From Candidatus Iainarchaeum sp. (GTDB lineage: Archaea > Iainarchaeota > Iainarchaeia > Iainarchaeales > JAZDEL01): a DNA stretch of 32,000 bases. The first letter of the stretch is position 1; every line of letters starts with the position of its first letter. Below are positions 1,324 through 24,997 of this stretch, piece after piece. The notes under the pieces were generated by a model that saw only the letters and a list, made by a program, of their open reading frames with translations, was not told the origin of the DNA and did not search any database. Location of the stretch: assembly GCA_043808785.1 (NCBI GenBank), contig JAZDEL010000004.1:120001-152000 (forward strand). The letters run 5' to 3'. The translations under genes and the position numbers were made by a program.

Positions 1324-1349
1324 GCGTTCCGCCAAATGCTGGCAAGGCA

Positions 1350-1361
1350 AATAAATTTATT
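1350..1361 (+). promoter_or_regulatory. TATA-like AT palindrome upstream of hicB (possible promoter of a leaderless transcript)
   Basis: aataaatttatt is a perfect 12-nt palindrome centred about 27 nt upstream of the ATG at 1383. No GGAGG-type RBS lies in between. Confidence 0.35.
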
Positions 1362-1382
1362 AACTCATTCAGGCACTAATTA

Positions 1383-1824: not shown

Positions 1825-1850
1825 ACGCGCTCAGAGCATGCGCTGCATCC

Positions 1851-2267
1851 CTATTTATTCCCAAGTTCGGAAAGCAGTTCCCCTGTTGAAATAATTTTCA
1901 CCCTGTTCTGCCTTTTCAGCGCTGCATCGTTCGACCAGACGGTGCAGCCAAGGTGCAGGGCAAGGGCGATGTATGCGACATCATCTCTATCGGGGGAGAT
2001 TTCCTTTGCCAGCGCCTCACGGTTCCTGAAATCCTCAAAGGGGACAACAACCATCTCGGAAAGTTCCAGCAGTTCGTCAAGCAGGCGGCTTATTTCCCTT
2101 TCGGAAAGGCCTGCCTTTTCCTGAAGTTCGGGAAGGTGCTTTTTGATTTCCCGAATCGAGAACTCTGGCGTGAAGAAATCAATTCCTGAGAGGAGGAGCG
2201 TGCTGCGCGTTGCGCCACCCTTAATCAGCGCGGAAAATATGATGTTTGCGTCCACAACAAGAAGCAT
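1851..2267 (-). CDS. PIN-domain protein (VapC-like toxin)
   Basis: 138 aa. N-terminal MLLVVDANIIFSAL with the PIN Asp, internal acidic residues (TPEFSIRE, DRDDVAYIALA) and C-terminal WSNDAAL. Sits 4 nt downstream of a small antitoxin-like ORF. Confidence 0.75.
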   Translation of the reverse strand: MLLVVDANIIFSALIKGGATRSTLLLSGIDFFTPEFSIREIKKHLPELQEKAGLSEREISRLLDELLELSEMVVVPFEDFRNREALAKEISPDRDDVAYIALALHLGCTVWSNDAALKRQNRVKIISTGELLSELGNK

Positions 2268-3734: not shown

Positions 3735-3890
3735 GGCCCCGTGGTGTAGCCTGGATAGCATAGTAGCTTGCGGTTACTGGAGGGAAGCGAAGGCTTGGCC
3801 CGGCGAGCGAAAGCGAGCCGGTCCGGATCGTCGCCGGATCCCTCCGGCGGCGGAAAGCTGCTGACCGGGGTTCAAATCCCCGCGGGGTCG
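3735..3890 (+). tRNA. tRNA-Arg(GCG) with an intron of about 82 nt after position 37
   Basis: Acceptor GGCCCCG/CGGGGTC. D-arm GTGT-AGCCTGGATA-GCAT. Anticodon stem GTAGC (3763-3767) pairs with GCTGC (3857-3861). Loop is TT-GCG-G [intron 3774-3855] A. T-arm CGGGG-TTCAAAT-CCCCG. Discriminator G. The intron folds internally (ctggaggga/tccctccgg). The exact splice positions were not verified. Confidence 0.7.
3879..3889 (+). repeat. Candidate attL core (inside the tRNA-Arg T-stem/acceptor 3' strand)
   Basis: cccgcggggtc is identical to 15064-15074. Confidence 0.4.
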
Positions 3891-3914
3891 TAAGGGCTGA
3901 AAGCACCAAATACC

Positions 3915-3947
3915 CCCCTGCGCTTTTAAATAGAAAAAGCACAGGGG
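3915..3947 (+). promoter_or_regulatory. 13-bp-stem hairpin between the tRNA and the integrase start
   Basis: cccctgcgctttt (3915-3927) pairs with aaaagcacagggg (3935-3947), 12 of 13 pairs. Ends 6 nt before the int ATG. Confidence 0.4.
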
Positions 3948-3953
3948 TGTTAT

Positions 3954-5285
3954 ATGGTGGAAGCGAGCATACACAATTACGATAAAAGTTTGGGGCGTTA
4001 CCTTGCCCTGATAAAAGGCGAGCGCACTCTGGACAAGAAGGACAGGCATAAACTGATTTACGCCGAGCCTATTTCGAAAGGCAAGGCGGATTTAATTTTG
4101 GAATACATAGCGCAGCGGGGCAAATTGGGCAAACGGCATTCCACTCTGGAGGTGGATGCAAGGTTCTTGCGCATTGCCGCACAGAAACTCAAAGGCGAGT
4201 TCGACTTTTCGCAGGATAACATGGACAACCTGAACGCCCTTTATGATTGGGCGATAGGGCAGGAGAGCAGGGAGGTTGCGACCATAAACAAATTGATTAA
4301 GGTTTTTCGCGCCTTCGGAACGTGGCACTACAACCGCGACCCGAAGAACAGGGTAAAAATAATGCGCGGGCACTTCCCGCCCTCGCTTTGCGGCTGGCAG
4401 TTGCTCCAAAAGAACGGCAGCATGAGGACGGAAAAAGGTGAGGCTCGGAAGCGGTTGCTTAACGACCCCGACAGCAGGCTGACGCTTGCGGATTACCGGC
4501 GGCTCATACGGGCGGCAGGGAGCGACCAACTGCGGGCCTACTTTGCGCTATGCGCCGATTGCGGAGCTCGGGGAGGAGAAAGCGGGGCGCTTATGGTTGG
4601 CGACATACGCGACAACGCAATAGCCGACCCGAAGCGCCCGTTTCTGGCCGTGCATTTCAGGCGGACAAAGACAGGCAGCGCAAACACCTTGCCCGTGCTG
4701 AACTGCAAGCCGCTGGTGCTGCGCTGGATTGAGAAGCACCCGATTGTGCAGAAGATGCGGGCACGGGGAGAAACCGACTTTTCAAACGTGCCGCTGTTCA
4801 TAAACGGGCGCGGGGCTTGCGTAAAATACAACGGCATTGCAAAAAGGCGCAGGACTGTGTTCGAGGCTGCGGGCATAACCAAGCCGAGCCAAACGCACCA
4901 CGACAGGCGCAGCATTGCGGGGATATATGCGGAACACTTCAGCGACAAGGCGCTGGATGCGTGGTTCAGTTGGAACAGCGGAAAAATGAGCAGCAGGTAT
5001 GTTAAATTTGCGACCGACCAACTCTGGGCGCAATACCTGAAGTTCTACAACAACCCCGAAAACATCCTGCGCAATGTGGAGTGCAAGAAGTGCGGGCGCA
5101 TAGGCATGAATGGCATAGAGGACTATTGTGAGTGCGGCTCGCCCTTTGAGGCAATAACAGTGCTCGCGCCGAAGGGGAGCGACACCGTGAGAAGTGCGGA
5201 GAAACAGGACGCGCTCATGGCGGCACTTGAGGCACTCTCGCGCAAGGTTGCACTGCTGGAGGTTGCCAACCAAAAAGTTATTTAA
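3954..5285 (+). CDS. int: Tyrosine recombinase / integrase
   Basis: 443 aa. Catalytic pattern R (CGARGGESGAL), H-x-x-R (HHDRRSIAGIY) and Y (SSRYVKF). C-terminal zinc-ribbon-like CKKCGRIGMNGIEDYCEC. Starts 63 nt after tRNA-Arg on the same strand. Confidence 0.85.
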   Translation: MVEASIHNYDKSLGRYLALIKGERTLDKKDRHKLIYAEPISKGKADLILEYIAQRGKLGKRHSTLEVDARFLRIAAQKLKGEFDFSQDNMDNLNALYDWAIGQESREVATINKLIKVFRAFGTWHYNRDPKNRVKIMRGHFPPSLCGWQLLQKNGSMRTEKGEARKRLLNDPDSRLTLADYRRLIRAAGSDQLRAYFALCADCGARGGESGALMVGDIRDNAIADPKRPFLAVHFRRTKTGSANTLPVLNCKPLVLRWIEKHPIVQKMRARGETDFSNVPLFINGRGACVKYNGIAKRRRTVFEAAGITKPSQTHHDRRSIAGIYAEHFSDKALDAWFSWNSGKMSSRYVKFATDQLWAQYLKFYNNPENILRNVECKKCGRIGMNGIEDYCECGSPFEAITVLAPKGSDTVRSAEKQDALMAALEALSRKVALLEVANQKVI

Positions 5286-5342
5286 GGGGGGAATAAAAAC
5301 ATGCCCCTTTAAAAAGGGATATATACCCAAGTGTTATCCAAT

Positions 5343-5471
5343 ATGCAAACGTTGCAAAAGACCGAACGGGTTATAAAAATTACCCCACGCGCATACGCTG
5401 GCTTAAAAGCCGCGAAACTGTACGCGAGGGAAACCTACTCGGACACGATTGAACGCTTGCTAAAAAAATGA
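5343..5471 (+). CDS. Small RHH/VapB-like antitoxin-family protein (42 aa, below the ORF-track cutoff)
   Basis: My translation is MQTLQKTERVIKITPRAYAGLKAAKLYARETYSDTIERLLKK. The I-x-I-x(3)-Y-x(2)-L-x(2)-K...E[ST][FY]SD[VT]I-x(2)-LL pattern is typical of small archaeal antitoxins that precede PIN genes. ATGA overlap with the next ORF. Confidence 0.5.
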   Translation: MQTLQKTERVIKITPRAYAGLKAAKLYARETYSDTIERLLKK

Positions 5472-5641
5472 AGCCGTTGGTTTGCGATACCTCGGCGGAT
5501 ATGGGAAAAAAAAGAGCATCAAATAGGAAAACGCGCTTCGGCGTTTTCCGCGCAAGTGAAGTTCGGATAGTTCCGAACAGATGCGACAAAGCCCAACGCT
5601 GGCGAAAGTCCAGCAAGACCCAAATGGGGGGCGGAGACTAA
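5468..5641 (+). pseudogene. Possible degraded PIN (vapC) remnant
   Basis: 57-aa ORF beginning MKPLVCDTSA (PIN-like N-terminal Asp motif), translationally coupled to the antitoxin-like ORF. The remainder is basic low-complexity without PIN motifs. Contains a perfect 9-bp hairpin, ggaaaacgc-gcttcg-gcgttttcc, at 5526-5549. Confidence 0.25.
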
Positions 5642-5723
5642 TTCTTCTCCGCGGCACCGTTCGATGCACACGATGTGATGAGAAAAGTTAAAGTGTGTAG
5701 CGAAAGCCGCGGAGGCAAAAAAA

Positions 5724-5903
5724 ATGGAAACGGAAAAAACGGGAATTAAAAAAATACGCAGCAGCCATAAGGCTGCGCCAGATTTGGCGGGCAACCTGTG
5801 GGCAGACCTGAAAAGGCACAGCCCAGCGGCTTTTGAACTGTTTAAGCATGATTGGGAAGAATACACCGCAGCCATCGGCAGGGAGGCTGAAAATAAAAGT
5901 TAA
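5724..5903 (+). CDS. Hypothetical small protein (59 aa, below the ORF-track cutoff)
   Basis: GGAGG at 5711-5715 lies 8 nt before the ATG. Translation is METEKTGIKKIRSSHKAAPDLAGNLWADLKRHSPAAFELFKHDWEEYTAAIGREAENKS. Followed by a GGGGG/CCCCC hairpin. Confidence 0.45.
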   Translation: METEKTGIKKIRSSHKAAPDLAGNLWADLKRHSPAAFELFKHDWEEYTAAIGREAENKS

Positions 5904-5942
5904 AAAAAAGAAGGGGGCTTGCACCCCCAGAGATGATGTCCT

Positions 5943-6221
5943 ATGATTGTTGCGTCCACGAGTTTTATAAGTGCAGGGGTTTTTTCTACAAAACCCATAC
6001 AGGCAGTTGTGCCACGCCGCAGAGTGTGTGCGCTCTGTTTGAACGATTCGGGAAGGCTTAAGCGAACTGTTTCTCATAAGGGGCAAAAGTTGAATTTCCT
6101 CTGCGGGGCTTGCATGAAAAAACTCGGACGCCCTGAATGCCAGCGGCTTCTTGAGCAATTACCCTTTCATGAAAACCAAACGAATTTTTGCAAAAATAAA
6201 ACCAGCGGAGGCGATGCTTAA
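5943..6221 (+). CDS. Zinc-ribbon protein, paralog of the ORF at 7930-8169
   Basis: RVCALCLNDSGRLKRTVSHKGQKLNFLCGACMKKL has a CxxC...CxxC pattern. Its stop overlaps the start of the Rep gene (TAATG at 6219-6223). Confidence 0.5.
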   Translation: MIVASTSFISAGVFSTKPIQAVVPRRRVCALCLNDSGRLKRTVSHKGQKLNFLCGACMKKLGRPECQRLLEQLPFHENQTNFCKNKTSGGDA

Positions 6222-7933
6222 TGAAGTCCATAACTGAATTAGCCCTTGACCTTTCTGAAGGTTTTTTTATTTTCCGCGACCAATTCGGCGAAACGTTCGC
6301 TATGATAAACTTCGGCGAACATTCTGAATTTTTCCCGCTGCATTCGAAACGATTTAAGGCACACATCGCAGGGGTTTTGTGGCTGCAACATAAAGTATCA
6401 ATCACCCCCGGCGCGTTGCAGGGAGTTATTCTATGTGTGGAGGGAACGTCCCAGAGGGCAGGTTCGCGGTTCTCTTTGCAAACCCGCGTTGCGGAGTGCG
6501 GGGGAAAGTTCTATTACGACCTCTGCGATGCGGAGTGGCGTGTTGTTGAAATTTCCGAGGAAGGCTGGAAAATTACCAACCAGCCGCGCCCTATTTTCAG
6601 GCGCTATTCGCACCAACTGGCGCAGACCGTTTCGGAAACAGAAACGCAGAACCTTGATGATTTTTTGGGAATGTTTAAGATTAGGGATACGGACAAACTG
6701 CTGATTAAGGTTTGGCTGGTGTGTTGTTTTATACCTGACATTCCCCACCCCATATTAGTTCTGCACGGCGGGCAGGGTTCAGCAAAGAGTACCTTTTTCA
6801 GAATGTGCCGCACGCTTGTGGACCCCTCGGCGCTGGCGGTTCTGAGTTTCCCTTCCGATAAAATGGAACTGATTCAGAAACTGGCGCACCACTACTTTGC
6901 GCCGTTCGATAACGTCAGCAGCATCGGGTCGGAGGTCAGCGATGTGCTGTGCCGCGCATGCACGGGCGAAGGGTTCAGCAAGAGAAAACTATACTCCGAT
7001 GACGAGGATGTGGTGTATGCATACAAACGTTGTGTTCTGCTAGGCGGAATTAACATTGCGGCAACGCGCGCCGACCTGCTTGACCGCGCCATGCTGTTCG
7101 GCTTTGAGAGGATCTCAAAAAAACACCGCAAAACCGAGAAGGTTCTCGATAAGCAATTGGAGGCGATGCGCCCGAAATTGCTCGCGGAGATTTTTGGGAT
7201 TATCAGCCGAGCAATGAGCATAAAGCCCGACCTTAAAACGCTCCCGCGCATGGCTGACTTCGGAACGTGGGGAGAGGCAGTCGCCCGCGCAATGGGGGAG
7301 AAGCTGATGGTTTTTGAGGCGGCATATTCCGCCAACCTTGATAAGCAGCATATTGAGGTTGTGGATGCTTCGCCTATTGGGCAGTGCCTACTGGTTTTTA
7401 TTTCCGAAAACTCTGAAGGCTGGCAGGGTTCAGCGAGTGATTTGCTTTCAAAACTTGAGGAGATAGCGCAAAAGGTGAAGATAAAAACAAACGACAAATA
7501 TTTTCCGAAAGCCCCCCACATTCTGATGCGCCGCCTAAATGAAATGAAGGCGAACCTTGAGGAACTTGGGATAGATATAACCTCCGACCATGACGGGAAG
7601 GAGAGGACGGTTCTTGTAAAAAAAGTAATGAAAGAAAGCGTTAGTAGCGTTATAGCGTTAGAAACGCAAGAGATAGCCGAAACGGGCACGAATAAAAAAA
7701 ACGCTACTGAAAAAGTAGCGTTAGTAGAAGCGTTAGCCGAGGGGAATAACGCTACTGAAGTGAAGCGTTCTGAAATAGCGTTAGCCGAAACGGGCACGAA
7801 TACTGCCGAGAATAAGCAAACTAACGCAACTAACGCTACTAACGCTATTCTGCCTACTCCTTTGTATGAAGGGCAGTGTGTTGTGTGGGAACGGGCCGCG
7901 GACGGCAAAGAAAAGCCGAGGTGGATTAAATGA
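6221..7933 (+). CDS. P-loop NTPase replication protein (SF3/D5-like helicase candidate)
   Basis: 570 aa. Walker A-like PILVLHGGQGSAKSTFF, Walker B-like HYFAPFDNVSS, then VLLGGINIAATRADLLDRAMLF (sensor/Arg-finger-like). The N-terminal domain is of the type seen in plasmid/phage primase-helicases. The repetitive C-terminal tail is Ala/Glu/Thr/Asn-rich. Confidence 0.65.
   Translation: MKSITELALDLSEGFFIFRDQFGETFAMINFGEHSEFFPLHSKRFKAHIAGVLWLQHKVSITPGALQGVILCVEGTSQRAGSRFSLQTRVAECGGKFYYDLCDAEWRVVEISEEGWKITNQPRPIFRRYSHQLAQTVSETETQNLDDFLGMFKIRDTDKLLIKVWLVCCFIPDIPHPILVLHGGQGSAKSTFFRMCRTLVDPSALAVLSFPSDKMELIQKLAHHYFAPFDNVSSIGSEVSDVLCRACTGEGFSKRKLYSDDEDVVYAYKRCVLLGGINIAATRADLLDRAMLFGFERISKKHRKTEKVLDKQLEAMRPKLLAEIFGIISRAMSIKPDLKTLPRMADFGTWGEAVARAMGEKLMVFEAAYSANLDKQHIEVVDASPIGQCLLVFISENSEGWQGSASDLLSKLEEIAQKVKIKTNDKYFPKAPHILMRRLNEMKANLEELGIDITSDHDGKERTVLVKKVMKESVSSVIALETQEIAETGTNKKNATEKVALVEALAEGNNATEVKRSEIALAETGTNTAENKQTNATNATNAILPTPLYEGQCVVWERAADGKEKPRWIK
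7637..7850 (+). repeat. Dense direct-repeat (iteron-like) block inside the 3' end of the Rep gene
   Basis: agcgttag occurs 5 times (7637, 7654, 7717, 7729, 7777), plus two near-copies at 7646 and 7763. A 20-nt perfect repeat, agccgaaacgggcacgaata, sits at 7675-7694 and 7783-7802. aacgctactgaa sits at 7700 and 7748. There are 9-nt periodic (a)ctaacgc units at 7821-7848. Confidence 0.6.
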
Positions 7934-8169
7934 ACACCACCCCCCGCCTCGCGCGAGGCACCCGCCCCCACCGCTGCATCGTGTGCGGCGAGCGCGCCAG
8001 CCGCCTGCACGCCCGCCATGACCGTTCGGAGTTGGAATTTTTGTGCGAGGAACATTACCGCCCGTGGCATCCTGACTTAGCCGCCACGCCAAAGCCAAAG
8101 GTGTTCTGGCGCAACCGCTACCGCCTCTCCGCTCTGCGGTATTGGGGAAGAGGGGGGTTTCACGCATGA
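7930..8169 (+). CDS. Zinc-ribbon-like protein, paralog of the ORF at 5943-6221
   Basis: HRCIVCGERASRLHARHDRSELEFLCEEHYRPW aligns with the CxxC..RL....FLC motif of the upstream ORF. ATGA overlap with the Rep stop (7930-7933). Confidence 0.5.
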   Translation: MNTTPRLARGTRPHRCIVCGERASRLHARHDRSELEFLCEEHYRPWHPDLAATPKPKVFWRNRYRLSALRYWGRGGFHA

Positions 8170-8177
8170 GCACAGTG

Positions 8178-8227
8178 CTGAGAGGTGCGAGAGGTGCAAT
8201 GCGCACTGCCACTCTCGCCACTCTCAG
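8178..8227. promoter_or_regulatory. Candidate operator: 50-nt imperfect palindrome built from doubled 9-mers
   Basis: gagaggtgc x2 (8180-8197) faces gccactctc x2 (8208-8225), with outer perfect inverted 7-mers ctgagag/ctctcag. Ends 13 nt before the RHH gene start. Confidence 0.4.
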
Positions 8228-8239
8228 GGGGTGCATGGT

Positions 8240-8563
8240 ATGAAGCGCGTCCACTTGCCCCTTACGGAAGAAGAATACGCCAACATCAAGGCGCTGTCAG
8301 CCAGCATGAGCGAGCGCCTGAACGAGCGCGTTGGCTTCGCGGATGTGGTTTGCAGGGCAGTGGCTTTGCTGGGCGCGCAAGAAAATGCGCTGCATGGTGT
8401 GGTAAAACACAAGCGCGGACGCCCACGGAAAAATGGGGGCAATAAAACAGCGGATTTTGCGAGTAAAAAACCAACCGCACCCTCGCCCTGCACAGAAAAC
8501 GCAGGGCAGGTGCAACAATTCGGAGGTGAAAACTATGGGAAGGAAACCGATAAGCAGGGCTGA
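8240..8563 (+). CDS. Ribbon-helix-helix DNA-binding protein with AT-hook-like KRGRPRK
   Basis: MKRVHLPLTEEEYANIKALSASMSERL shows an RHH beta-strand plus helix pattern. The basic tail carries GRP. Confidence 0.6.
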   Translation: MKRVHLPLTEEEYANIKALSASMSERLNERVGFADVVCRAVALLGAQENALHGVVKHKRGRPRKNGGNKTADFASKKPTAPSPCTENAGQVQQFGGENYGKETDKQG

Positions 8564-8807
8564 GCATGAGCGCAGGCTCGCGCTTTACCATGCAGGCAAG
8601 AGCGATGTGCAGATTGGCAAACTTTTGGGCAAAAAACCAAACACGATTGTGCATTGGAGATACGGAAACAAACTTATCGCCAACTTTACGAACTTTCGCG
8701 GCGAGCGGGCAGGCTTGAGGCGCATGGCGGTTTTGATTGAGCATACAAAGCGGGCGAACAGGATTTATGCGCGCAAGCGTAAGGCGAGGAAACAAAAGAG
8801 GGCATAA
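8535..8807 (+). CDS. Small helix-turn-helix protein with basic C-terminal tail
   Basis: GGAGGTGA at 8523-8530 precedes the ATG at 8535. MGRKPISRAEHERRLALYHAGKSDVQIGKLLGKKPNTIVHWR is HTH-like. The C-terminus ARKRKARKQKRA is basic. Confidence 0.55.
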   Translation: MGRKPISRAEHERRLALYHAGKSDVQIGKLLGKKPNTIVHWRYGNKLIANFTNFRGERAGLRRMAVLIEHTKRANRIYARKRKARKQKRA

Positions 8808-8818
8808 GGGGCGATAAC

Positions 8819-9055
8819 ATGGACGTGATGGAGGTGTTCTATGACGGCGCACAAGTTGTGCTAAAGGTAGAGGTCAATGGCACCCCCATCTCGATACCGT
8901 GGGGCGGGCTTCGCGTAAAGTGGCGCACTGTTGGGAGATGGCACGCCCATTTTATAAAAATGGGGTTGATGCCGCGCGGGCAGTTTAAGCGTACCCCGCT
9001 CTCCGCCCCAAAGAATTTTTTAGGGGGGGTTAAAAAGGTTTTGCAAAAACAATAA
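8819..9055 (+). CDS. Hypothetical protein
   Basis: 78-aa ORF in the same orientation and spacing as its neighbours. No motif recognised. Confidence 0.4.
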   Translation: MDVMEVFYDGAQVVLKVEVNGTPISIPWGGLRVKWRTVGRWHAHFIKMGLMPRGQFKRTPLSAPKNFLGGVKKVLQKQ

Positions 9056-9143
9056 CCCCCCAACCCCGCAGTTATTTTATTGCCGACCTGCAGGTGCAAA
9101 TGTTCGCCGAGCAGGAGGCTCAACGTAAAAAAGGTTTTGTAAA

Positions 9144-9359
9144 ATGGGAAACCAACCGCAAAAAGAGCGTTCAACCTTTACAGCCATCGGCACGGTGCTG
9201 TTTCTTTTTGCGATTTTATTCCGCGAGTTCTTGGTGCACGGCGTTGACCTGTTGTTTGCACTTTTATTTTTAGGGGCGGTGTTCATGGGCACTGGCTCGC
9301 TCGGCTTTTTGCTCAACCGTTTCCACGCACGCGCGGAAAATAGCGAGGTGTCGGCATGA
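9144..9359 (+). CDS. Small membrane protein (two predicted TM helices)
   Basis: Hydrophobic segments FTAIGTVLFLFAILF and LLFALLFLGAVFMGTGSLGFLL. ATGA overlap with the next gene. Confidence 0.6.
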   Translation: MGNQPQKERSTFTAIGTVLFLFAILFREFLVHGVDLLFALLFLGAVFMGTGSLGFLLNRFHARAENSEVSA

Positions 9360-9547
9360 ACTTAAACCCGCTCGCGCTTGGCGCGGTTGTGGCGCTGGCG
9401 TTTTTCGCAGCGGCTGTTGTGGAGCATTTTTTCAGGCAGGATAAAATTGTCGCGGCGCTCATGGATTTGGGTTCGTTCCTTGCAATTGCCGCAATTTTCG
9501 GCGCGGTGTTTGCACTTGCCGCGGCTTACTTGGGGTGGTTGCAATGA
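9356..9547 (+). CDS. Small membrane protein (two predicted TM helices)
   Basis: Hydrophobic segments LALGAVVALAFFAAAVV and LGSFLAIAAIFGAVFALAAAYL. ATGA overlap with the next gene at 9544-9547. Confidence 0.6.
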   Translation: MNLNPLALGAVVALAFFAAAVVEHFFRQDKIVAALMDLGSFLAIAAIFGAVFALAAAYLGWLQ

Positions 9548-11169
9548 ATAACGGAAATTTGCTCGCGGCGTTTGTTCTGCTCGCCGTTCTTGCGGGTGGG
9601 TTTTATTTCGGCTTTTTTGGTTCATTCGGGCTCGGCGCGGTTGCGGACGCGGGAAAGTTTTACCGCCCTGTTTGGGGCAGCGTTGGCTGCGAATTTACAG
9701 GCAGCGGTGCAGGCACCGCGCAGGACAGCATTAAAATTGCGAACGGGAACGCACAGTATTTTTGCAAAGGCGGCTCGTGCAGGGTTGCAAGCATGAGCGC
9801 CGCGTGCGGCGGCGTTCCAGTTTATGAGGGCGGCTCCGCGAACTATGCGCAGGGGTTTTGGGCAAAGGTTTGTGTGGACAATAACCCCGCAAAATGCGCG
9901 ACAGGTAACCAAATTTACAATTTGAAGGCGGCACAGGGCGAAACGCTTTACATCAGCAACGTGCACTGCTATTCTGGTCTTATCCCGCCTTTGGCAAACG
10001 GCACCGCTGGGATTGAATACAGCCCGCTGCAACTTATGCGTTTCCAAGACGGCTCGCGCTTCAATGTTCAGGGCGGCGCAGGCTGCCTGACAGCGGACGC
10101 AAAATATAATTTTGGCAGCATTCAGCCAGTTGCCTCGGACGCGCCGAAAACCGACTTTTGGAAACAGGTCGGCACGGCTTTGTTCGGCGTAAATATTCAG
10201 GGCTACATGGGCGGGGAAACCGCAAAAACTTTCAAGAACACAACTGGCGCGGAATTTCTGAAACTCGGAACTTACCTGCCGTACATTGTTGAATGGAGGG
10301 AGATAATTGCCGGCCTGCACATTTACAAGCCAATCGTGGGCAAGTTTGCTGGCAAAAACATCCTGTGCGACACAGCGCAAACCCGCATTTACGAATTTGG
10401 TTCCGTTAGAACCAGCGGCGGCGCGGCTTACAACATTCCGATAAAAGACTTGGGCGCTGTTGCGTGCTGCAATGACGCGGATTGCGCGCTTGGAAAAATA
10501 TGCAACACTGCGGGCGGAAACTTTGTATGCGAGCAGGCTGCAAGCACATGCCAAAAGGCATGTGCCACCGATTTGGTATGCGGCGGAACATACAGCCACA
10601 AGAACGGCGCGCCAGTATGGACAAAGGGCGAGTGCGTAAATTCGTGCTGTAAATACACGGATTTGCCCGTTGAGTGTGTCGAGGCAAACGATTGCCCAGC
10701 CCGCGATGGCTACACAAAGGAGTGCGACAGCCGCACGCACGAGTGTTTGTACAGTAAAAACGCGGACTACAAAACCGCCTGCGCTGGCGAATGTTGCAGC
10801 GGCAGCGGAAATTATTATGCAAAGGCATGTGCAACTGGTTTGTGCTGCCCCGCTGGCGCGGATGTCGGGGTTTGCAAAGCCTCGTGCAGCGAACTGCCGA
10901 GCAGTTGCGGCGATGGCATTTGCCAACTGGGTGAGCAACTGACCTGCCCGCCAGATTGCCAGCCAAAAACCGAATGCCCGGCAGGGCAGGTGCTTGTGGA
11001 GAAGCACTGGCTCGGCTTGGACTTTATGCCAGCGGTAACGGACATTTTCGGCAACGCGCAGAAGGAATGCAGGGCACCAGCGGACAACGGCCTGCTGATT
11101 GTTGGCGGTGTTGTGCTGCTCGCTGGCGCAATAGTGTTCGCCGCGCTGCTCATGAAAAGGAAGAGGTGA
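9544..11169 (+). CDS. Large type-I membrane protein with Cys-rich ectodomain (candidate envelope spike)
   Basis: 541 aa from the ATG at 9544. N-terminal hydrophobic signal/anchor LLAAFVLLAVLAGGFYFGFF. The C-terminal third is packed with Cys motifs (CCNDADCALGKIC, CVEANDCPARDGYTKEC, CGDGICQLGEQLTCPPDC). C-terminal TM LLIVGGVVLLAGAIVFAALL + MKRKR. Confidence 0.75.
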   Translation: MNNGNLLAAFVLLAVLAGGFYFGFFGSFGLGAVADAGKFYRPVWGSVGCEFTGSGAGTAQDSIKIANGNAQYFCKGGSCRVASMSAACGGVPVYEGGSANYAQGFWAKVCVDNNPAKCATGNQIYNLKAAQGETLYISNVHCYSGLIPPLANGTAGIEYSPLQLMRFQDGSRFNVQGGAGCLTADAKYNFGSIQPVASDAPKTDFWKQVGTALFGVNIQGYMGGETAKTFKNTTGAEFLKLGTYLPYIVEWREIIAGLHIYKPIVGKFAGKNILCDTAQTRIYEFGSVRTSGGAAYNIPIKDLGAVACCNDADCALGKICNTAGGNFVCEQAASTCQKACATDLVCGGTYSHKNGAPVWTKGECVNSCCKYTDLPVECVEANDCPARDGYTKECDSRTHECLYSKNADYKTACAGECCSGSGNYYAKACATGLCCPAGADVGVCKASCSELPSSCGDGICQLGEQLTCPPDCQPKTECPAGQVLVEKHWLGLDFMPAVTDIFGNAQKECRAPADNGLLIVGGVVLLAGAIVFAALLMKRKR

Positions 11170-11173
11170 AAAC

Positions 11174-11506
11174 ATGGCAAAGGCAAAGGACATTTTGGGA
11201 ATGGCGGTTGACCTGCTTGCGTGGGGGGTTCTCGCATTGATGCTGCTTGCTGCAGTGGATTATTTTGTTTTGGGCGGGTGGAACTTGGAAAGCCTTAGCC
11301 TTACTTATTTTGGCAAGGACGTATCGGGTCGTTGTGTGGCTTACTCGCAGGACACATGCAGCACAAACGCCGAATGCACCTCGCATGTGCCATCGGACAG
11401 CGCGGAAAATTCTCTCTGGAAACTAAATTACACAAAAGCGGTTTGCTCAAGCGGGCATTGTTGCATTCCGCGGAATGCAACAATTTTATGGGAGGTGCTT
11501 GACTGA
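11174..11506 (+). CDS. Small N-terminally anchored Cys-motif protein (paralog A)
   Basis: TM AVDLLAWGVLALMLLAAVDYFVL, then CSTNAECTSHVPSDSAENSLW...CSSGHCC. Confidence 0.6.
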   Translation: MAKAKDILGMAVDLLAWGVLALMLLAAVDYFVLGGWNLESLSLTYFGKDVSGRCVAYSQDTCSTNAECTSHVPSDSAENSLWKLNYTKAVCSSGHCCIPRNATILWEVLD

Positions 11507-11814
11507 TGGGGTCGGCTATAAATCTGTTCGGCGTGGCGCTTTTGCTTGTGGTGGCGCTTTTCGTGGTTGATTTGCAGTTTGCAGGCGGGCGCAACGCAAA
11601 ATTGGCGGCAAACTTTGTGCGCGAGGAGATGCACATGAACGAGCCAGCGCCTTTGCGGCAGGGAAATTATTTGGTTTCCGCGCAGGCGTGCACAACATCC
11701 TCCGAATGCCGCGACAAGGTTCCAATGGATGCAACGCCGAGCAATTATTGGCAGGCGCACGCGGGTTTGGCTGAATGCCTGAACCATGTTTGCGTGCTTG
11801 AGGTAAAAAAGTAA
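11506..11814 (+). CDS. Small N-terminally anchored Cys-motif protein (paralog B)
   Basis: TM LFGVALLLVVALFVV, then CTTSSECRDKVPMDATPSNYW...CLNHVC, which aligns with the preceding ORF. TGATG stop/start overlap. Confidence 0.6.
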   Translation: MGSAINLFGVALLLVVALFVVDLQFAGGRNAKLAANFVREEMHMNEPAPLRQGNYLVSAQACTTSSECRDKVPMDATPSNYWQAHAGLAECLNHVCVLEVKK

Positions 11815-11829
11815 AAAGGGGTGTGAAAA

Positions 11830-12087
11830 ATGGCAAAAATGGTTTTACCAATTTTGGTATTGGGCGTACTGGTTGTTGTGGCGCTTGGGCTGGGCGTGTT
11901 GAACTCGTGGCAGATTTGGTTTGCGCCGCATGCGCAGCCAGAACAAGCCGAGCAGCCGCAGGTGCAGCCAGAACAAGCCGAGCAGCCTCATGCGCAGCCA
12001 GATTCAAACGGCTGCGTGCCCTGTGCCATGACCGATGCAAACGGCAACAAGTTAGATACGCTTTGCTGCCCAACGGGGGGCGTGTAA
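11830..12087 (+). CDS. Small N-terminally anchored protein with QPEQAEQP tandem repeats and a Cys-rich tail
   Basis: TM VLPILVLGVLVVVALGLGVL, a repeat linker, then C-terminal NGCVPCAMTDANGNKLDTLCCP. An RBS-like ggggtg lies 7 nt upstream. Confidence 0.55.
   Translation: MAKMVLPILVLGVLVVVALGLGVLNSWQIWFAPHAQPEQAEQPQVQPEQAEQPHAQPDSNGCVPCAMTDANGNKLDTLCCPTGGV
11934..12002 (+). repeat. 30-nt tandem repeat (2.3 copies) inside the CDS
   Basis: gcagccagaacaagccgagcagcc at 11934-11957 and 11964-11987, then partial gcagccaga at 11994-12002. Confidence 0.8.
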
Positions 12088-12090
12088 TTT

Positions 12091-13389
12091 ATGCTTCGTT
12101 TTAGCAAAAACGAAAACTGTGAGGGCGCTCTGGCAGGTGCTTTCACCTCCAAACAAAATAGTACGGGAAAAAACGGCGGCGGTTTTGCCAAATTCTCGCC
12201 GCCCTTTCTCTTTGCAATTTGCCTGCTTGCACTTGCGCCGTTTGCTTTTGCCAGCACGCCGCATTACCTGACTGTTTCGGGCAGGCTTTCAAACGCGGCA
12301 AAAACTTCGTACCTTACGCAAAACCTGAGCACGACTTTTGCGCTTTATGACGCGGCAACAGGCGGCACCGCGCTGTGGTCGGAAACCAAAAACATAAATT
12401 ACGTTGTCGGCACATACAGCACAACCCTCGGCGACACCACGGCGCTCGATTTAAATTTCCGCGTGTCTTACTGGCTGGGCGTCACGGTTGGCGCCGACAG
12501 CGAGATGACGCCGCGCAAGCAATTGGCAAGCGTGCCTTATTCCATGCGGGTGAACGACATAAACGCGATGGGGGATTTGAACCTCACGGGCAAAATTACC
12601 TCGAACGGCAACTTGGTTTTTGCCAAAGATAGCAACATAACCCTCGCATCAACAAAAAGTGCGGACGCTGGCGAATTGATAAAATTGAAGTTCGATGATT
12701 TGACAAACCCAAGCGCGAAGGCAACAATTTCGTGGTACGATGCCAACACGGCGGCAGAAAATAATTCTCCGCAGGCAATCGGCTGGTTTGTTTGCCACAA
12801 TCAATTAGGCAGTGGGGCAACGGCTGTAGTCCATAAACATTGCTCCATCGAAACCAGTTTAGCAGACGGAAGCCCAACTTCAAGGCTCGCCATACAATAC
12901 GGGGTAGACCACGCCAACATAACTACTTATGATTCCGATTTTACGGTTGGGGGCTCAGGCGGAAACTTCAGGGTTGGCGGCACTTCGGTAATGGATTCGG
13001 ATTTGAATGTTGCCACAAAAGTCTGGCTGAACTCCGCGGGCACTGCATCTTTTATCGCCGACCGTGCGGCAACTACAAACTTCTCAAGCCTGATTTTTAA
13101 CACCGCCAATGTGAACCAGTGGACTTTTGGTTTGCGCAATGAAAGCACAAACGACCTGCACCTGCGCGACAATGTGAACCTGCGCACTCCGATAAAAATA
13201 ACCCAGAGCACGGGGGATATTAATTTCAGCAGCAATATACGCGCAAACGATGTTAATTGCTCCGACCTGAACGTCAGCAACAAAACCGTGGTGCGCAGCG
13301 ATGGCAACATGTACCTGACGGACAGTGCGGGGGTACGCTGGAACTGCGGCGTTAATTCGGGCACGGGCACGTTTGCCTGTACCCCATGA
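12091..13389 (+). CDS. Secreted sequon-rich fibre/adhesin-like protein
   Basis: Signal-like FLFAICLLALAPFAFAS. The N-terminal module FALYDAATGGTALWSET...YWLGVTVGADSEMTPRKQLASVPYS resembles a domain common in tail-fibre/adhesin-type proteins. At least 10 N-x-S/T sequons (NLS, NLT, NIT, NNS, NFS, NES, NCS, NVS, NKT). Confidence 0.65.
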   Translation: MLRFSKNENCEGALAGAFTSKQNSTGKNGGGFAKFSPPFLFAICLLALAPFAFASTPHYLTVSGRLSNAAKTSYLTQNLSTTFALYDAATGGTALWSETKNINYVVGTYSTTLGDTTALDLNFRVSYWLGVTVGADSEMTPRKQLASVPYSMRVNDINAMGDLNLTGKITSNGNLVFAKDSNITLASTKSADAGELIKLKFDDLTNPSAKATISWYDANTAAENNSPQAIGWFVCHNQLGSGATAVVHKHCSIETSLADGSPTSRLAIQYGVDHANITTYDSDFTVGGSGGNFRVGGTSVMDSDLNVATKVWLNSAGTASFIADRAATTNFSSLIFNTANVNQWTFGLRNESTNDLHLRDNVNLRTPIKITQSTGDINFSSNIRANDVNCSDLNVSNKTVVRSDGNMYLTDSAGVRWNCGVNSGTGTFACTP

Positions 13390-13398
13390 GGTGTTTGC

Positions 13399-14133
13399 AT
13401 GAAGAAAGCAATAACCCTCTGCGCGCTTATTTGCCTGTGCGCCTTTGCAAGCGCGGCAATGGGCAGCACAAACTATGCAATGGAACTGGAAACAGTTGCG
13501 GGCGGCGGCACGGGCAGCGTATCGGAAAACTACGCAATGGATTTTACGGTTGGGTTTGGTGCAGGCATGAGCAGCACAACTTACAACCTTTGCTGGGGCC
13601 TGTACTGCGATGTGGTGCCCGCGGCTTATGGTGCGGGCACGTTTTCAGTGCAGGCGCCCGGCAGCGGCACACAGGATTATTCGATTGCGGTCGGCAACAG
13701 CGACCCCACAGTTCCGACAGGGAGCATAAAAATAACTTCGACCTGCCCCTCTGCCAACCTGACAACAGTGGGCGGCATTGCAAGCATACCCGCTGGCGGC
13801 ACTGGCGGCATTACTGTCCATGTGCAGGGCACAAACACGGGCGGCATGATTAACTGCGCCTTGAATTTAACAGGCGCGGATTATAACACAACCGTGCCAA
13901 TTTCGCTTTCGGATAACGTCACGAGCAACAGCGGAGCCGTACAGGGCAGCGGCAACGGTGCACCATCGGGCAATGTAGATAACGCGCAGGGTGAGGGCAG
14001 CGGTGCACCGCTGCCGCAGGATAACGGCACGGGTGCGGCGCTTGCGCTTGCGGGCGGCGACACTGACACGCTCCTGCTGCTGGGGCTTTTGATTGTAGCG
14101 CTTGGGGCTGCTTGGCTTTTCTTGGGGCGGTGA
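13399..14133 (+). CDS. Secreted protein with signal peptide and C-terminal TM anchor
   Basis: GAGGTG RBS at 13388-13393. MKKAITLCALICLCAFASA signal. Internal duplicated S-x-NYAM[ED] motif. Sequons NLT, NTT, NVT, NGT. C-terminal LLLLGLLIVALGAAWLFLGR. Confidence 0.7.
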   Translation: MKKAITLCALICLCAFASAAMGSTNYAMELETVAGGGTGSVSENYAMDFTVGFGAGMSSTTYNLCWGLYCDVVPAAYGAGTFSVQAPGSGTQDYSIAVGNSDPTVPTGSIKITSTCPSANLTTVGGIASIPAGGTGGITVHVQGTNTGGMINCALNLTGADYNTTVPISLSDNVTSNSGAVQGSGNGAPSGNVDNAQGEGSGAPLPQDNGTGAALALAGGDTDTLLLLGLLIVALGAAWLFLGR

Positions 14134-14135
14134 AC

Positions 14136-14393
14136 ATGGCGGGCATGGGCACAGGAGAGTATGAAACACTTTCAACGCAAACCATTTTGCTGGAGCCGAC
14201 CTCGTACTCGTATGAGGTTTCCATTAAGCGCCGCATAGGGCAGCGCAAGGCATTCCTCGAAATTGCCCGCCTTGTCAGCGCCGCCAACACCAGAAGAAAG
14301 AATAAGTATGTGCAGATACCCCAACTCTGCTGGAAGGAAGTATTACATACAGCGGCACACCTATGCCGCGAGCATGAGGAACGCAAACAATAA
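14136..14393 (+). CDS. Hypothetical protein (last gene of the + strand operon)
   Basis: ATG 3 nt after the preceding stop; 85 aa. No motif recognised. The coding call rests on position only. Confidence 0.35.
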   Translation: MAGMGTGEYETLSTQTILLEPTSYSYEVSIKRRIGQRKAFLEIARLVSAANTRRKNKYVQIPQLCWKEVLHTAAHLCREHEERKQ

Positions 14394-14491
14394 TCAAACA
14401 TCGTTTGCATGTTTCATTCCTTGTGTTGTGCTCTAATTATTTTTTCTGTCGGTGGGTTTGGGGAAACTGTTTAATAGTTCTAGATTTACCG

Positions 14492-14516
14492 AAAAGCCCC
14501 CCCATGGCTTTTTTAT
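14492..14516 (+). terminator. Hairpin plus T-tract downstream of the operon
   Basis: aaaagcc (14492-14498) pairs with ggctttt (14506-14512) and runs into tttttt. Lies in an AT-rich stretch. Confidence 0.4.
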
Positions 14517-14653
14517 ACATAACATAAGGAGATTAATTATTGCCAAATTAATTATATGTGAACTGCCTGCTCGCTGAGGCGGGAAGGATTCTCCCGTGCC
14601 ATTCCCTGAGTGCCGTATTAATACCGAAGATATTTAATATTAGGGCAGCAAGC

Positions 14654-14797
14654 ATAAAGGGGCGCGGCGGGGATAGGAAAAGCGAGGAGTTCAAAGAGGA
14701 CACCGTGTCCTCTTTGATTGATGATGGTGTACTTACAAGAACAGCGGAAGCCGTTGGTGAAAGCAGCAAAACAATTCAGCGCGCCCGCGCCTATGGC
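14654..14797 (+). pseudogene. Fragment of an HTH protein (GGDRKS...TIQRA type), probably decayed
   Basis: IKGRGGDRKSEEFKEDTVSSLIDDGVLTRTAEAVGESSKTIQRARAYG resembles the N-terminal GGDR[KR]S + HTH region of plasmid/phage ParB-like or regulator proteins. It has no credible start and runs into the convergent AbrB-like gene. Confidence 0.3.
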
Positions 14798-14967
14798 GAA
14801 ACCTTGCCCACCACAACAGCGCCGCCCTTGACGACCCAGCGAATCTTTTGCTTCTCGTCATCCACATGCAAGCCGAGCATCTCGATTGCGAGCCTGCGCG
14901 GGATGGCGGTGCGGAAGAAATGCCTGCCGTGGATTTGCACGGTTGTCGTGCCTTCGAGTGCCCTCAT
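14791..14967 (-). CDS. AbrB/SpoVT-family DNA-binding protein (regulator or antitoxin)
   Basis: MRALEGTTTVQIHGRHFFRTAIPRRLAIEMLGLHVDDEKQKIRWVV fits the AbrB swapped-hairpin pattern. The TATA-like ttataaataaa (complement of 14985-14995) lies about 18-28 nt upstream of this ATG. Confidence 0.5.
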   Translation of the reverse strand: MRALEGTTTVQIHGRHFFRTAIPRRLAIEMLGLHVDDEKQKIRWVVKGGAVVVGKVSP

Positions 14968-15063
14968 ATTTAAGTATTGTGCACATTTATTTATAAGCAC
15001 AAGGCACAGGAAAATAATACATAAGCGCAGTGGTTGGGTATTTGACGCTTTGGCTGTGTATTA

Positions 15064-15074
15064 CCCGCGGGGTC
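15064..15074 (+). repeat. Candidate attR core
   Basis: cccgcggggtc is identical to the tRNA-Arg 3' segment at 3879-3889. The flanks do not match further. Confidence 0.4.
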
Positions 15075-15093
15075 ATTGCGCCATTTCGTAGGT

Positions 15094-15179
15094 GCGCGAA
15101 TTGGCATCAGCCAATTGCGCCCGTTTTGGCTGAGCCAAAACAGGGCGATCCGAAGTATGTGGGCTGCCTTTGGCAGCCC
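15094..15179. repeat. Cluster A of three short GC-clamped hairpins (TTGGC/GCCAA type)
   Basis: gcgc(g)aattggc-atca-gccaattgcgc (15094-15120), gttttggc-tga-gccaaaac (15123-15141) and gggctgcc-ttt-ggcagccc (15161-15179). Confidence 0.6.
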
Positions 15180-15212
15180 GGTAATACGTAAATATTTACG
15201 CCATCAATAGTT

Positions 15213-15566
15213 TCAGACTTCTATTTCTTTCCAGACAAGCTTAATGGCGTTAAAATATTTTTTTGTAAAATCGGCAACCATTTGCGCGGAGAACGGCTTG
15301 CAGGTGTAAGTGTCCACGGTGAACAGCGGCGGTTTTGTCGGGTAGCTGTAAAAGTGCGCGCCCGAAGATTTCCAGTGGATCCAGCCGCCAAAACCCATAT
15401 CGTGGGCTGTGTAAGCAACGGGCTGCTCCAAAACTTCCATGTCAGAAATTTTTGCAAGTTCGAGCAAATAAGCCTTAATCTGCCCAATGCCGACAATTTT
15501 TTCGGTAGTCCCTTCAATAATCATTCTCTGCCTAATTAGACCTGGAGCTAAATTTTCCCACTTCAT
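15213..15566 (-). CDS. S-adenosylmethionine decarboxylase-related (pyruvoyl-type, SpeH/SpeD-like) protein
   Basis: From MKWENLAPG. GFGGWIHWKSSGAHFYSYP...LFTVDTYTCKPF resembles the (E)SS self-cleavage region and the VD.F(Y)TC motif of the small AdoMetDC family. Confidence 0.5.
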   Translation of the reverse strand: MKWENLAPGLIRQRMIIEGTTEKIVGIGQIKAYLLELAKISDMEVLEQPVAYTAHDMGFGGWIHWKSSGAHFYSYPTKPPLFTVDTYTCKPFSAQMVADFTKKYFNAIKLVWKEIEV

Positions 15567-15659
15567 CAAAATCAAAAGCCGCCAAAAAGTTAAAAAAACT
15601 ACTTTACTTGCAAACACGCCCACAAAAGGAATAAATACAACTTAGCACATTTTAGTTTC

Positions 15660-24927: not shown

Positions 24928-24997
24928 CTGCCCCGTGCCACAATGCGCATAACTGCCCAATATAAAAACGTTTTTCGGGAGTTTATTATATGCAAAA

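Follow-up and report, generated by a model that had tools for sequence, protein, structure and literature searches.

An integrated element at tRNA-Arg(GCG) of a Diapherotrites archaeon, carrying an SF3-helicase replication gene and a membrane-protein operon with no recognisable capsid genes

Introduction

What kind of mobile element couples an integrase and a replication protein to a run of genes for membrane and secreted proteins, with no recognisable capsid gene among them? The question is raised by a 32,000-nucleotide stretch of Candidatus Iainarchaeum sp. (contig JAZDEL010000004.1, 200.7 kb long, positions 120,001 to 152,000, hereafter the window; all positions are those of the window unless another contig is named), in which an integrated element had been predicted downstream of a tRNA-Arg(GCG) gene. 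What is known of the viruses and plasmids of DPANN archaea comes almost entirely from metagenomic contigs, and many of these lack hallmark genes. The kinds of component involved are already known, namely tRNA-integrated archaeal elements, superfamily 3 (SF3) replication proteins (Reps) and capsid-less enveloped archaeal viruses. As described below, window 3891-15074 is certainly an integrated 11.2-kb mobile element of a Diapherotrites (Iainarchaeia, DPANN) archaeon, and it belongs to a family of elements targeting the same sublocation of tRNA-Arg(GCG). What its membrane-protein operon does is then weighed.

The integration site

The insertion is revealed by an empty site. A scan of the GTDB species genomes with the flanking MetAP gene (2552-3454, minus strand) retrieved a Candidatus Iainarchaeum contig, L004, whose MetAP is 74% identical to that of the window. 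In L004 a homologue of window 1349-1826 is followed by MetAP, an intron-less tRNA-Arg(GCG) gene (L004 639-714, complement), about 43 nt and the orthologue of the 332-amino-acid (aa) host protein that lies at the far side of the window element. Window 3891 to ~15650 is therefore an insertion relative to L004, its right junction being resolvable in this comparison to the zone between 14133/14393 and 15660 and not to a single base. L004 also lacks a PIN_2-domain gene (PF10130, 1.9e-22) found in the window at 1851-2267 (minus strand), between MetAP and the next conserved gene; these two neighbours are only 19 nt apart in L004. Unrelated small indels thus also separate the two genomes. The original prediction of an integrated element at tRNA-Arg(GCG), for which an empty site was to be sought, is upheld by this related genome and by another, related element that occupies the same sublocation of the tRNA gene.

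The target gene consists of exons 3735-3773 and 3856-3890, separated by an 82-nt intron (3774-3855) at the canonical 37/38 position, and its discriminator base is the G at 3890. ARAGORN itself labelled this gene Cys(GCA) with a non-canonical splice. The label was dropped in favour of Arg(GCG), because alignment to the intron-less L004 orthologue, for which ARAGORN itself gives Arg(GCG), yields both the 37/38 intron and the GCG anticodon. ARAGORN, the L004 alignment and the open reading frames (ORFs) agree with the earlier description of an intron-containing tRNA-Arg(GCG) gene ending at 3890 and an integrase gene starting 63 nt further on the same strand.

The 11-mer CCCGCGGGGTC, corresponding to tRNA positions of about 62-72, was found exactly twice in the window, starting at 3879 and 15064, and the absence of a third copy, previously judged by eye, is thus borne out. 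A longer and better repeat pair, by which other limits would have been defined, was looked for; a repeat search of the window gave no longer direct repeat from the tRNA 3' region to anything downstream. The argument that a second copy would hardly occur by chance does not hold as it was made: some 11-mer of the tRNA 3' exon recurs within 28 kb downstream in ~21% of Markov simulations. The question is narrower in the boundary zone 14134-15660, defined by the L004 empty site and the last operon gene (14133/14393). There the 11-mer is the sole match of at least 9 nt to the tRNA end, and chance gives P ~0.009 for any 11-mer (Markov simulations) and P = 0.00035 for the terminal 11-mer. The repeat alone was not convincing; it becomes so because the empty site and the second element supply independent information. 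The distal 11-mer is the only attR candidate and a statistically credible one. Host sequence had been thought to resume at 15075, but synteny with L004 resumes at ~15660, leaving between them a 136-aa gene that may belong to the host or to the element.

With the two copies as att cores, the predicted excised circle measures 11,185 bp. Its attP junction is predicted to read ...GTGTATTA-CCCGCGGGGTC-GTAAGGGC..., and the attB junction of the empty site tRNA...AATC-CCCGCGGGGTC-ATTGCGCC....

A second element at the same tRNA gene

One of the closest homologues of the window Rep (P0004, 44% identity) lies on contig 42 of Logan SRR6490177, hereafter L001, which derives from an organism other than the window host (GC content 42%). 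L001 carries a tRNA-Arg(GCG) gene (L001 1370-1560) with a 118-nt intron at position 37/38, and the gene adjoining it encodes a protein 30% identical to the 332-aa host protein of the window. A tyrosine integrase with a C-terminal Zn ribbon is encoded ~58 nt past the tRNA, followed by a minus-strand ORF, a ribbon-helix-helix (RHH)-like ORF, a Zn-ribbon ORF, Rep, a second Zn-ribbon-like ORF recognised by eye and a protein with two transmembrane (TM) segments. The first Zn-ribbon ORF (L001 3746-3973) is 39% identical to its counterpart just upstream of Rep in the window (tblastn 1.8e-16). The second shows no detectable similarity to the window protein at its position, and the two integrases are too diverged for detection by BLASTP. 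The terminal tRNA 10-mer CTGTGGGGGC recurs once in L001, at 7076 (P = 0.004 for that 10-mer), directly past the element genes and ahead of toxin-antitoxin and TrkA/TrkH genes.

Both elements have a hairpin between the tRNA and the start of int, of the form CCCCTGC(G/A)C ... G(C/T)GCAGGGG with TTAAATA in its loop. It is kept in sequence and position at L001 1580-1610 and is absent from the L004 empty site; a search for the motif in IMG/VR gave no match. The hairpin is probably the int promoter, with a TATA-like box, combined with an operator or an Int-binding site.

The two elements are thus alike in their tRNA-Arg(GCG) sublocation, short repeat of the terminal tRNA segment, hairpin with TATA-like motif and Zn-ribbon/Rep order. 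The L001 element differs in its size, ~5.5 kb, and in what follows the backbone, a single small 2-TM gene in place of the glycoprotein, fibre and other secretome genes of the window. Taken together, the empty site, the L001 element, the terminal 10-mer repeat and the common hairpin define a family of integrative elements targeting the same sublocation of tRNA-Arg(GCG).

As a separate observation, the tRNA-Arg(GCG) gene has an intron in both occupied genomes (82 nt in the window, 118 nt in L001) and none in the empty L004. Integration in the window and in L001 is at the tRNA 3' end, away from the intron.

The integrase and the replication backbone

The features of the element and its immediate surroundings are collected in Table 1. 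The gene order, the strand bias, the stop/start overlaps and the membrane or secreted nature of eight of the nine operon products, as first described, were all reproduced by the ORF lists and hydropathy.

Table 1. Features of the integrated element and its borders, with the basis of each assignment. Positions refer to the window, except in the last row.
Feature	Position	Strand	Basis and remarks
Target tRNA-Arg(GCG)	3735-3890	+	ARAGORN with introns allowed; exon limits from the L004 alignment
attL core CCCGCGGGGTC	3879-3889	+	Last 4 T-stem nt and 3' acceptor strand; repeated exactly at 15064-15074
Inverted repeat CCCCTGCGC / GCACAGGGG around TTTTAAATAG loop	3912-3950	+	Repeat search; just upstream of int
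Tyrosine integrase, 443 aa, C-terminal Zn ribbon	3954-5285	+	PF00589 3.3e-6; zf 2.7e-4; phrog_1 1.8e-16
Two small putative ORFs, 57 and 59 aa	5468-5641, 5724-5903	+	ORF list; formerly called an antitoxin-like stub
Zn-ribbon protein, 92 aa, backbone	5943-6221	+	39% identity to the L001 ORF just upstream of Rep
Replication protein, D5-like SF3 helicase, 570 aa	6221-7933	+	Walker A GGQGSAKST; AlphaFold2 and Foldseek
Zn-ribbon protein, 79 aa	7930-8169	+	Overlaps Rep stop; CxxC...C motif; weak Pfam zf matches
RHH-like protein	8231/8240-8563	+	By eye
Helix-turn-helix (HTH) protein	8433-8807, probably from internal ATG 8535	+	HTH_38 E = 0.001, below cut-off
78-aa basic soluble protein, first of the nine operon genes	8819-9055	+	ORF, hydropathy; no family match
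2-TM proteins, 71 and 63 aa	9144-9359, 9356-9547	+	Hydropathy; V1676_03815, V1676_03820
544-aa Cys-rich (38 Cys) membrane glycoprotein, candidate envelope spike	9535-11169	+	Family, hhalign, AlphaFold2
Three small N-anchored Cys proteins, 110, 102 and 85 aa	11174-12087	+	Hydropathy; no family match
432-aa secreted fibre-like adhesin	12091-13389	+	Bdello_MAT_N 9.4e-5; weak T4 gp36 match
244-aa surface protein, signal peptide and C-terminal TM anchor	13399-14133	+	Hydropathy; no family match
85-aa ORF, possibly the last operon gene	14136-14393	+	ORF
Distal non-coding/regulatory region	14394-15063		ORF list; possible minus-strand small ORF 14791-15000; plus-strand HTH-like stretch by eye
Candidate attR core CCCGCGGGGTC	15064-15074	+	Between the last operon gene and the return of L004 synteny
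136-aa gene	15213-15623	-	Outside candidate attR; not present in the L004 empty site
Host flank, 332-aa multi-TM protein	15660-16658	+	57% aa identity to L004 (tblastn 1e-60)
KGW.GE motif proteins of contigs L012 and L017	L012 1538-1906, 8796-9524, 12546-13481; L017 245-445, 5560-5973, 5982-6251		One is a D12-class methyltransferase

The catalytic R, HxxR, W and Y positions of the integrase are visible in alignment, and the protein is named tyrosine-type recombinase at NCBI. Its gene is one intact ORF lying wholly downstream of the core, rather than a split gene with attP inside int as in the SSV type. The locus has the marks of tRNA-targeting elements with an intact int: catalytic motifs, int adjoining an intact tRNA gene, a distal repeat and an empty site. 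Among deposited viruses, the only relatives of the integrase were found in GacPV1 (BK065156) and ThalV2 (BK065158), at a weak 24% identity (E = 1e-5 to 1e-7). These are pleolipovirus-like proviruses of Archaeoglobi, with a layout of int, VP3-like and VP4-like genes and a rolling-circle Rep. A family search of the two small ORFs following int gave no match.

No Pfam, NCBIfam or PHROG family was found for the 570-aa Rep. Homologues of it number more than 1,900, with 37-48% identity; many are fused N-terminally to PrimPol/PriCT, zf-CHC2 or Toprim domains (PF09250, PF08708, PF01807, PF13155), and no primase domain (AEP/PrimPol or Toprim) was detected in Rep or elsewhere in the element. The contigs of the homologues carry integrases, serine recombinases, ParB, methyltransferases or a terminase, and Rep relatives occur on 13 IMG/VR contigs and in Microbacterium phage Zeta1847. 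In an alignment of 46 sequences, the window Rep keeps 28 of the 28 invariant residues, and K189 of Walker A is invariant. A confident AlphaFold2 model was obtained, with pLDDT 82 and pTM 0.79. The best 50 Foldseek matches of this model are all SF3 primase-helicases (ASFV C962R, NrS-1, PriRep1, SaPI5, poxvirus D5/E5), with E down to 8e-9. The resemblance to the D5-like enzymes covers the helicase core and the preceding domains (Foldseek probability 1.0, TM-score up to 0.61 on the target), whereas sequence identity is only 9-12% and the primase domain is lacking. The SF3-like nature proposed for Rep is thus supported at the level of predicted structure. Since both integrase and Rep look intact, it was reasonable to call the element possibly still mobile.

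Searches of Pfam, PHROGs, NCBIfam and PADLOC with all element proteins gave only the integrase, the weak HTH and the weak fibre matches, and no defence system. PDB sequence searches with Rep, the integrase, the 136-aa protein and the fibre family gave nothing beyond the P-loop. Rep, the integrase, the 544-, 432- and 244-aa proteins and the two 2-TM proteins are identical to NCBI entries within MFH1224902-MFH1224914 (V1676_038xx). Exact-protein look-ups gave no record of other assemblies or empty sites carrying window proteins.

The membrane-protein operon

The nine-gene block forms a tight same-strand operon with stop/start overlaps, and TM or signal segments are predicted by hydropathy in eight of its nine genes. 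Its largest product, the 544-aa protein, combines an N-terminal signal/TM segment, a beta-rich ectodomain, Cys-knot-like modules and a C-terminal TM anchor. The protein is an orphan in a word-indexed search; a full HMMER scan identified a family of 13 representatives with 25-39% identity. A scan with the family profile gave nothing in IMG/VR and two loci in JGI metagenomes, one of them a duplicate. Single-protein scans of IMG/VR for close relatives of the 544-aa protein, the 432-aa protein and Rep were also negative.

Among deposited phage and virus genomes, the sole match to the 544-aa family is gene 8 (542 aa) of Altivir_3_ACLF (tblastn 7e-3), which is independently matched by a second family member (tblastn 2e-4). 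Alignment of the family profile to gene 8 with hhalign gave a probability of 99.7% (E = 3.4e-25, 323 columns), whereas two other Cys-rich proteins used as specificity controls gave 2-3%. Altivir_3_ACLF (BK059157.1), predicted as a virus of Altiarchaeum with the help of CRISPR spacers from Altiarchaeota, lacks hallmark genes, was described as a 'putative virus' and was classed as lytic by VirSorter (Rahlff et al. 2021, PMC8324899). The structural ORFs, none of which had earlier been placed in a named family, are thus not complete orphans: the family of the 544-aa protein includes Altivir_3 gene 8.

The AlphaFold2 model of the 544-aa protein is of moderate quality (pLDDT 69, pTM 0.44) and has a beta-rich ectodomain and small disulfide modules. 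Its sole significant structural match is BFVD A0A5Q2W4P0, a 384-aa unnamed viral protein (Foldseek E = 1.5e-9, probability 1.0), with a TM-score of only 0.19-0.25.

Other members of the family lie on contigs L012-L017 (GC 36-38%), in one-strand clusters of ORFans with Cys-rich doubly anchored and small multi-TM proteins. These contigs also encode extremely basic small proteins, a transglutaminase-core protein and YdjM, and L017 a DUF87 (HerA/FtsK-type) ATPase. Two further observations were made on them. On L012 (15020-17750, minus strand, at the contig end) a Cas1 gene lies next to a Cas12f1/TnpB-like gene. On the low-GC contigs L012 and L017, several unrelated proteins open with the basic N-terminal motif KGW.GE..(K/R)HR.A..KG, which may be a common targeting or packaging tag.

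Of the smaller products that follow, the 110- and 102-aa proteins are by eye apparent paralogues sharing the motif C.T..EC...VP.D...W...C...C. In the 85-aa N-anchored protein (11830-12087), three tandem 30-nt repeats (11925-12002) encode (Q)PEQAEQP in a linker. Homologues of the 432-aa protein resemble it only over the N-terminal ~100 residues; they are annotated as 'tail fiber domain-containing' or bear collagen or Peptidase_S74 domains. Bdello_MAT_N, the NCBIfam model of the N-domain of the Bdellovibrio mosaic adhesive trimer (MAT), is matched by 14 of 15 family members (best 5.7e-13). This supports its assignment, from sequence, as a putative trimeric adhesive fibre.

Cys-rich anchored proteins are also encoded by the host. 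The product of the ORF at 1-1323 is secreted, rich in Cys and anchored at its C-terminus, and it contains an acidic double-disulfide repeat (NF033662, 9e-6). A CGDG...C...C motif of this protein recurs in the C-terminal portion of the 544-aa protein and in the products of Altivir_3 genes 9 and 11. Small disulfide modules seem to be common to surface proteins of the host and of mobile genetic elements (MGE).

What the operon may build

The reading we favour, giving the statement as a whole an even chance, is that the operon provides an integrative tRNA-targeting element with the membrane envelope of a particle without a capsid, be it a pleomorphic virion or a plasmid vesicle. The integrase would recombine the circular 11,185-bp form with the tRNA gene across the short core, regenerating a functional tRNA. 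After excision the SF3 helicase would replicate the circle, probably together with the adjoining Zn-ribbon proteins and the host primase and polymerase, and the small RHH and HTH proteins and the int-promoter hairpin would control the switch. The operon would put the 2-TM proteins, the 544-aa type-I glycoprotein, the small Cys proteins, the adhesin and the 244-aa surface protein into the host membrane. Inside that membrane, the element DNA would exit the cell, either as a pleomorphic virion lacking a capsid or as a plasmid vesicle, and the fibre and glycoprotein would mediate attachment and entry. Such an element would function like a temperate pleolipovirus on an integrative-plasmid backbone, with proteins bearing no detectable relation to those of the Pleolipoviridae. 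Besides the homology to Altivir_3 gene 8, the envelope reading draws on the MAT/tail-fibre type of the fibre N-domain, on the tight same-strand operon and on the weak integrase matches to the two pleomorphic Archaeoglobi proviruses.

Several observations weigh against this reading. Particles, excision, circular forms and transfer are predictions, and the membrane-enveloped virus or vesicle-forming plasmid of the original prediction is not established. No element protein matched a capsid, portal, terminase or other virion family in Pfam or PHROGs, in agreement with the earlier remark that capsid genes could not be recognised. For the 544-aa model, Foldseek gave no PDB match of significance (best E = 0.06), and no solved spike or fusogen fold is among the PDB matches listed for it. 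Between the 544-aa family and the VP4-like proteins of GacPV1 and ThalV2, hhalign gave a probability of 0.4-0.5%. No AAA+ ATPase homologue was found, Rep being the sole P-loop protein of the element. Altivir_3 is itself only a putative virus. The N-domain of the 432-aa protein is not specific to viruses: homologues are also common among cell-surface genes in ordinary chromosomal surroundings, both in bacteria and in another Diapherotrites genome. The L001 relative has no envelope operon, so that the backbone works without one. All proteins looked up are singletons at 90% identity among ~15 billion proteins, and the element has therefore been seen only once. Three further points concern the insertion itself. 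At 11 bp the core repeat is short, and it is followed by different bases, G at attL and A at attR; the 136-aa gene lies outside attR and is nevertheless missing from the L004 empty site; and GC, GC skew and GC3 of the element genes match the host flanks, with host-like codon usage. The composition check suggested at the outset was thus carried out and showed no difference; it is uninformative because GC and GC3 of the element equal those of the flanks.

Of the alternatives, the strongest, which we consider a serious contender of somewhat lower probability, takes the element as an integrative plasmid or islet and the nine-gene block as cargo remodelling the host surface. No particle would be made, and transfer would take place by other routes. 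The cargo could consist of adhesins and Cys-rich anchored proteins by which an episymbiotic DPANN cell attaches to its partner, or it could serve superinfection exclusion. The presence of the backbone without the operon at the same tRNA in L001 speaks for this explanation. Because the L001 element has this backbone and no envelope operon, we regard the operon as an accessory module and consider the backbone most aptly described as an integrative plasmid. The fibre N-domain family agrees with the cargo explanation too, being found in chromosomal contexts beside large surface proteins, pilus or type II secretion system genes, and matching the Bdellovibrio MAT fibres, as do the similar Cys-rich anchored protein of the host (ORF 1-1323), the absence of virion hallmark genes and a codon usage identical to that of the host. 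What favours an envelope function over surface cargo is the distribution of the 544-aa family, recorded only on MGE-like contigs and in a CRISPR-targeted putative virus, with no case in an evident chromosomal context. It is favoured also by the order of 2-TM genes followed by a large glycoprotein gene, which recurs in Altivir_3, and by the tight coupling of the operon to replication and regulation genes.

An extension of the envelope reading goes further, and as a joint claim we regard it as possible but rather unlikely. In it, the element would be the first integrated (temperate) member of an undescribed lineage of capsid-less enveloped viruses of DPANN archaea and Altiarchaeota. The hallmark of the lineage would be a ~540-aa Cys-rich glycoprotein encoded after small 2-TM proteins; it would be unrelated to the Pleolipoviridae and would have arisen when a tRNA-Arg-targeting SF3-helicase integrative plasmid captured an envelope module.

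Far less probable is that the locus is a decayed, immobile remnant of a former MGE, now fixed, in which the 11-mer is coincidental and the true right end lies near 15650, with the 136-aa gene included. The short core with its differing next base, the ~21% chance of some 11-mer match over 28 kb, the insertion running to ~15650 relative to L004 and the fully host-like composition would fit a remnant. Against decay stand the integrase, Rep and all operon ORFs, which are intact, with catalytic and invariant residues kept. Coincidence is made difficult by the position of the 11-mer, exactly the terminal tRNA segment in the expected zone, and by the repetition of the same terminal segment in the independent L001 element; and, as the PIN gene indel illustrates, small indels of unrelated origin also separate L004 from the window.

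Other features of the window

Neither Pfam, NCBIfam, PADLOC, PDB nor phage genomes gave a match to the 136-aa protein, and Pfam gave nothing at E <= 5 in the distal region between the last operon ORF and the candidate attR. AdoMetDC-like identity of the 136-aa protein and AbrB-like and ParB/HTH-like readings of ORFs at 14.4-15.1 kb were proposed by eye; they have no Pfam support and were not used.

Elsewhere in the window, a tRNA-Thr(GGT) gene with a 17-nt intron (24997-25089) was found only with introns allowed, default ARAGORN reporting tRNA-???. Two tandem 54-nt copies of 70% identity (22485-22592) lie near the 3' end of the ORF 21520-22629, in a histidine-biosynthesis neighbourhood.

Significance

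Three aspects may be new, within a comparison that left the main DPANN mobilome survey outside, and an earlier description is possible: this combination of components in a Diapherotrites host, a family of elements specific to tRNA-Arg(GCG) whose core is very short, and a glycoprotein family tied to a hallmark-less putative Altiarchaeum virus. The locus is an anchored case: the host is a Diapherotrites metagenome-assembled genome, the att site is defined and can be set against an empty one, and a sister element occupies the same tRNA gene. An integrative-plasmid backbone is joined here to a membrane-protein module shared with a putative, CRISPR-targeted virus of Altiarchaeum. Should the module build particles, the 544-aa family could serve as a marker in searches for a new group of archaeal viruses without capsids, and the two elements, one with the module and one lacking it, would illustrate interconversion of plasmids and enveloped viruses. 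If it is cell-surface cargo, mobile elements would supply adhesins to episymbiotic archaea. The existence of the new lineage would show a plasmid-to-virus transition in DPANN archaea.

Comparison with known systems

Pleolipoviridae, enveloped archaeal viruses of small size (7-17 kb) and without a capsid, resemble the element in concept, with one or more small membrane-protein genes upstream of a gene for a ~500-aa anchored spike. GacPV1 and ThalV2 are in addition temperate and have a tyrosine integrase with a C-terminal Zn ribbon. The element differs by its SF3 helicase in place of a rolling-circle Rep, an extra fibre adhesin and three small Cys proteins; no pleolipovirus genus is known to use an SF3 helicase. 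In a BLASTP comparison of all element proteins with GacPV1 and ThalV2, the integrase alone matched. The VP3-like proteins gave E = 0.27-0.42 with the 2-TM queries, which occupy equivalent positions and are too short to make this a firm negative. Equivalents of ORF6/ORF7, which with an AAA+ ATPase (HRPV-1 ORF8-like) belong to the pleolipovirus morphogenetic module (10.1101/2025.02.15.638363), were not detected in this comparison.

That the element is a highly diverged member of the Pleolipoviridae/Haloruvirales, its small membrane proteins being VP3 and the 544-aa protein a VP4 fusion spike with all similarity lost, is the least probable explanation: the common layout (~11 kb, a ~500-550-aa anchored spike, integrase at a tRNA, no capsid), the restriction of integrase matches among deposited viruses to two Archaeoglobi proviruses and the frequent failure of BLASTP to detect pleolipovirus homologues between hosts (10.1101/2025.02.15.638363) are outweighed by the negative VP4 comparison, the integrase as sole BLASTP match, the absence of an AAA+ ATPase, of ORF6/ORF7 equivalents and of a solved spike or fusogen fold among the listed matches, and a different class of Rep. 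Membership in the Pleolipoviridae is thus not supported, because no VP4 match, no other protein match, no ATPase or ORF6/ORF7 and another Rep class were found; functional analogy is possible. Of the pleolipovirus analogy drawn earlier, the layout is retained, and homology, with hhalign below 1% for VP4-like proteins, no AAA+ ATPase homologue found and, with the short 2-TM queries, no VP3 homologue found, is not.

A vesicle-borne plasmid offers another comparison. pR1SE of Halorubrum lacusprofundi is a ~50-kb haloarchaeal plasmid that encodes membrane proteins and spreads in vesicles without a capsid. Its likeness to the element, set beside it here by description, is an idea only, offered as a lead.

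A further close counterpart is Altivir_3_ACLF. Only one protein is demonstrably common to the two, the host is an altiarchaeote and GC is 32% against 53%; no relatives of the window integrase or SF3 Rep were detected on the partial Altivir_3 record. The small 2-TM genes of the two are alike in topology and order only, no sequence similarity being detected. Altivir_3 measures ~12.6 kb and, like the element, lacks capsid and other hallmark genes; nearly all its genes lie on one strand. Ahead of gene 8 it encodes small proteins of 59 and 66 aa, each with two TM segments, and another small TM protein of 98 aa, and beyond gene 8 it encodes more Cys-rich proteins that have TM segments at both ends. 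If the new lineage exists, hallmark-less putative viruses such as Altivir_3 would gain in this glycoprotein a structural marker gene.

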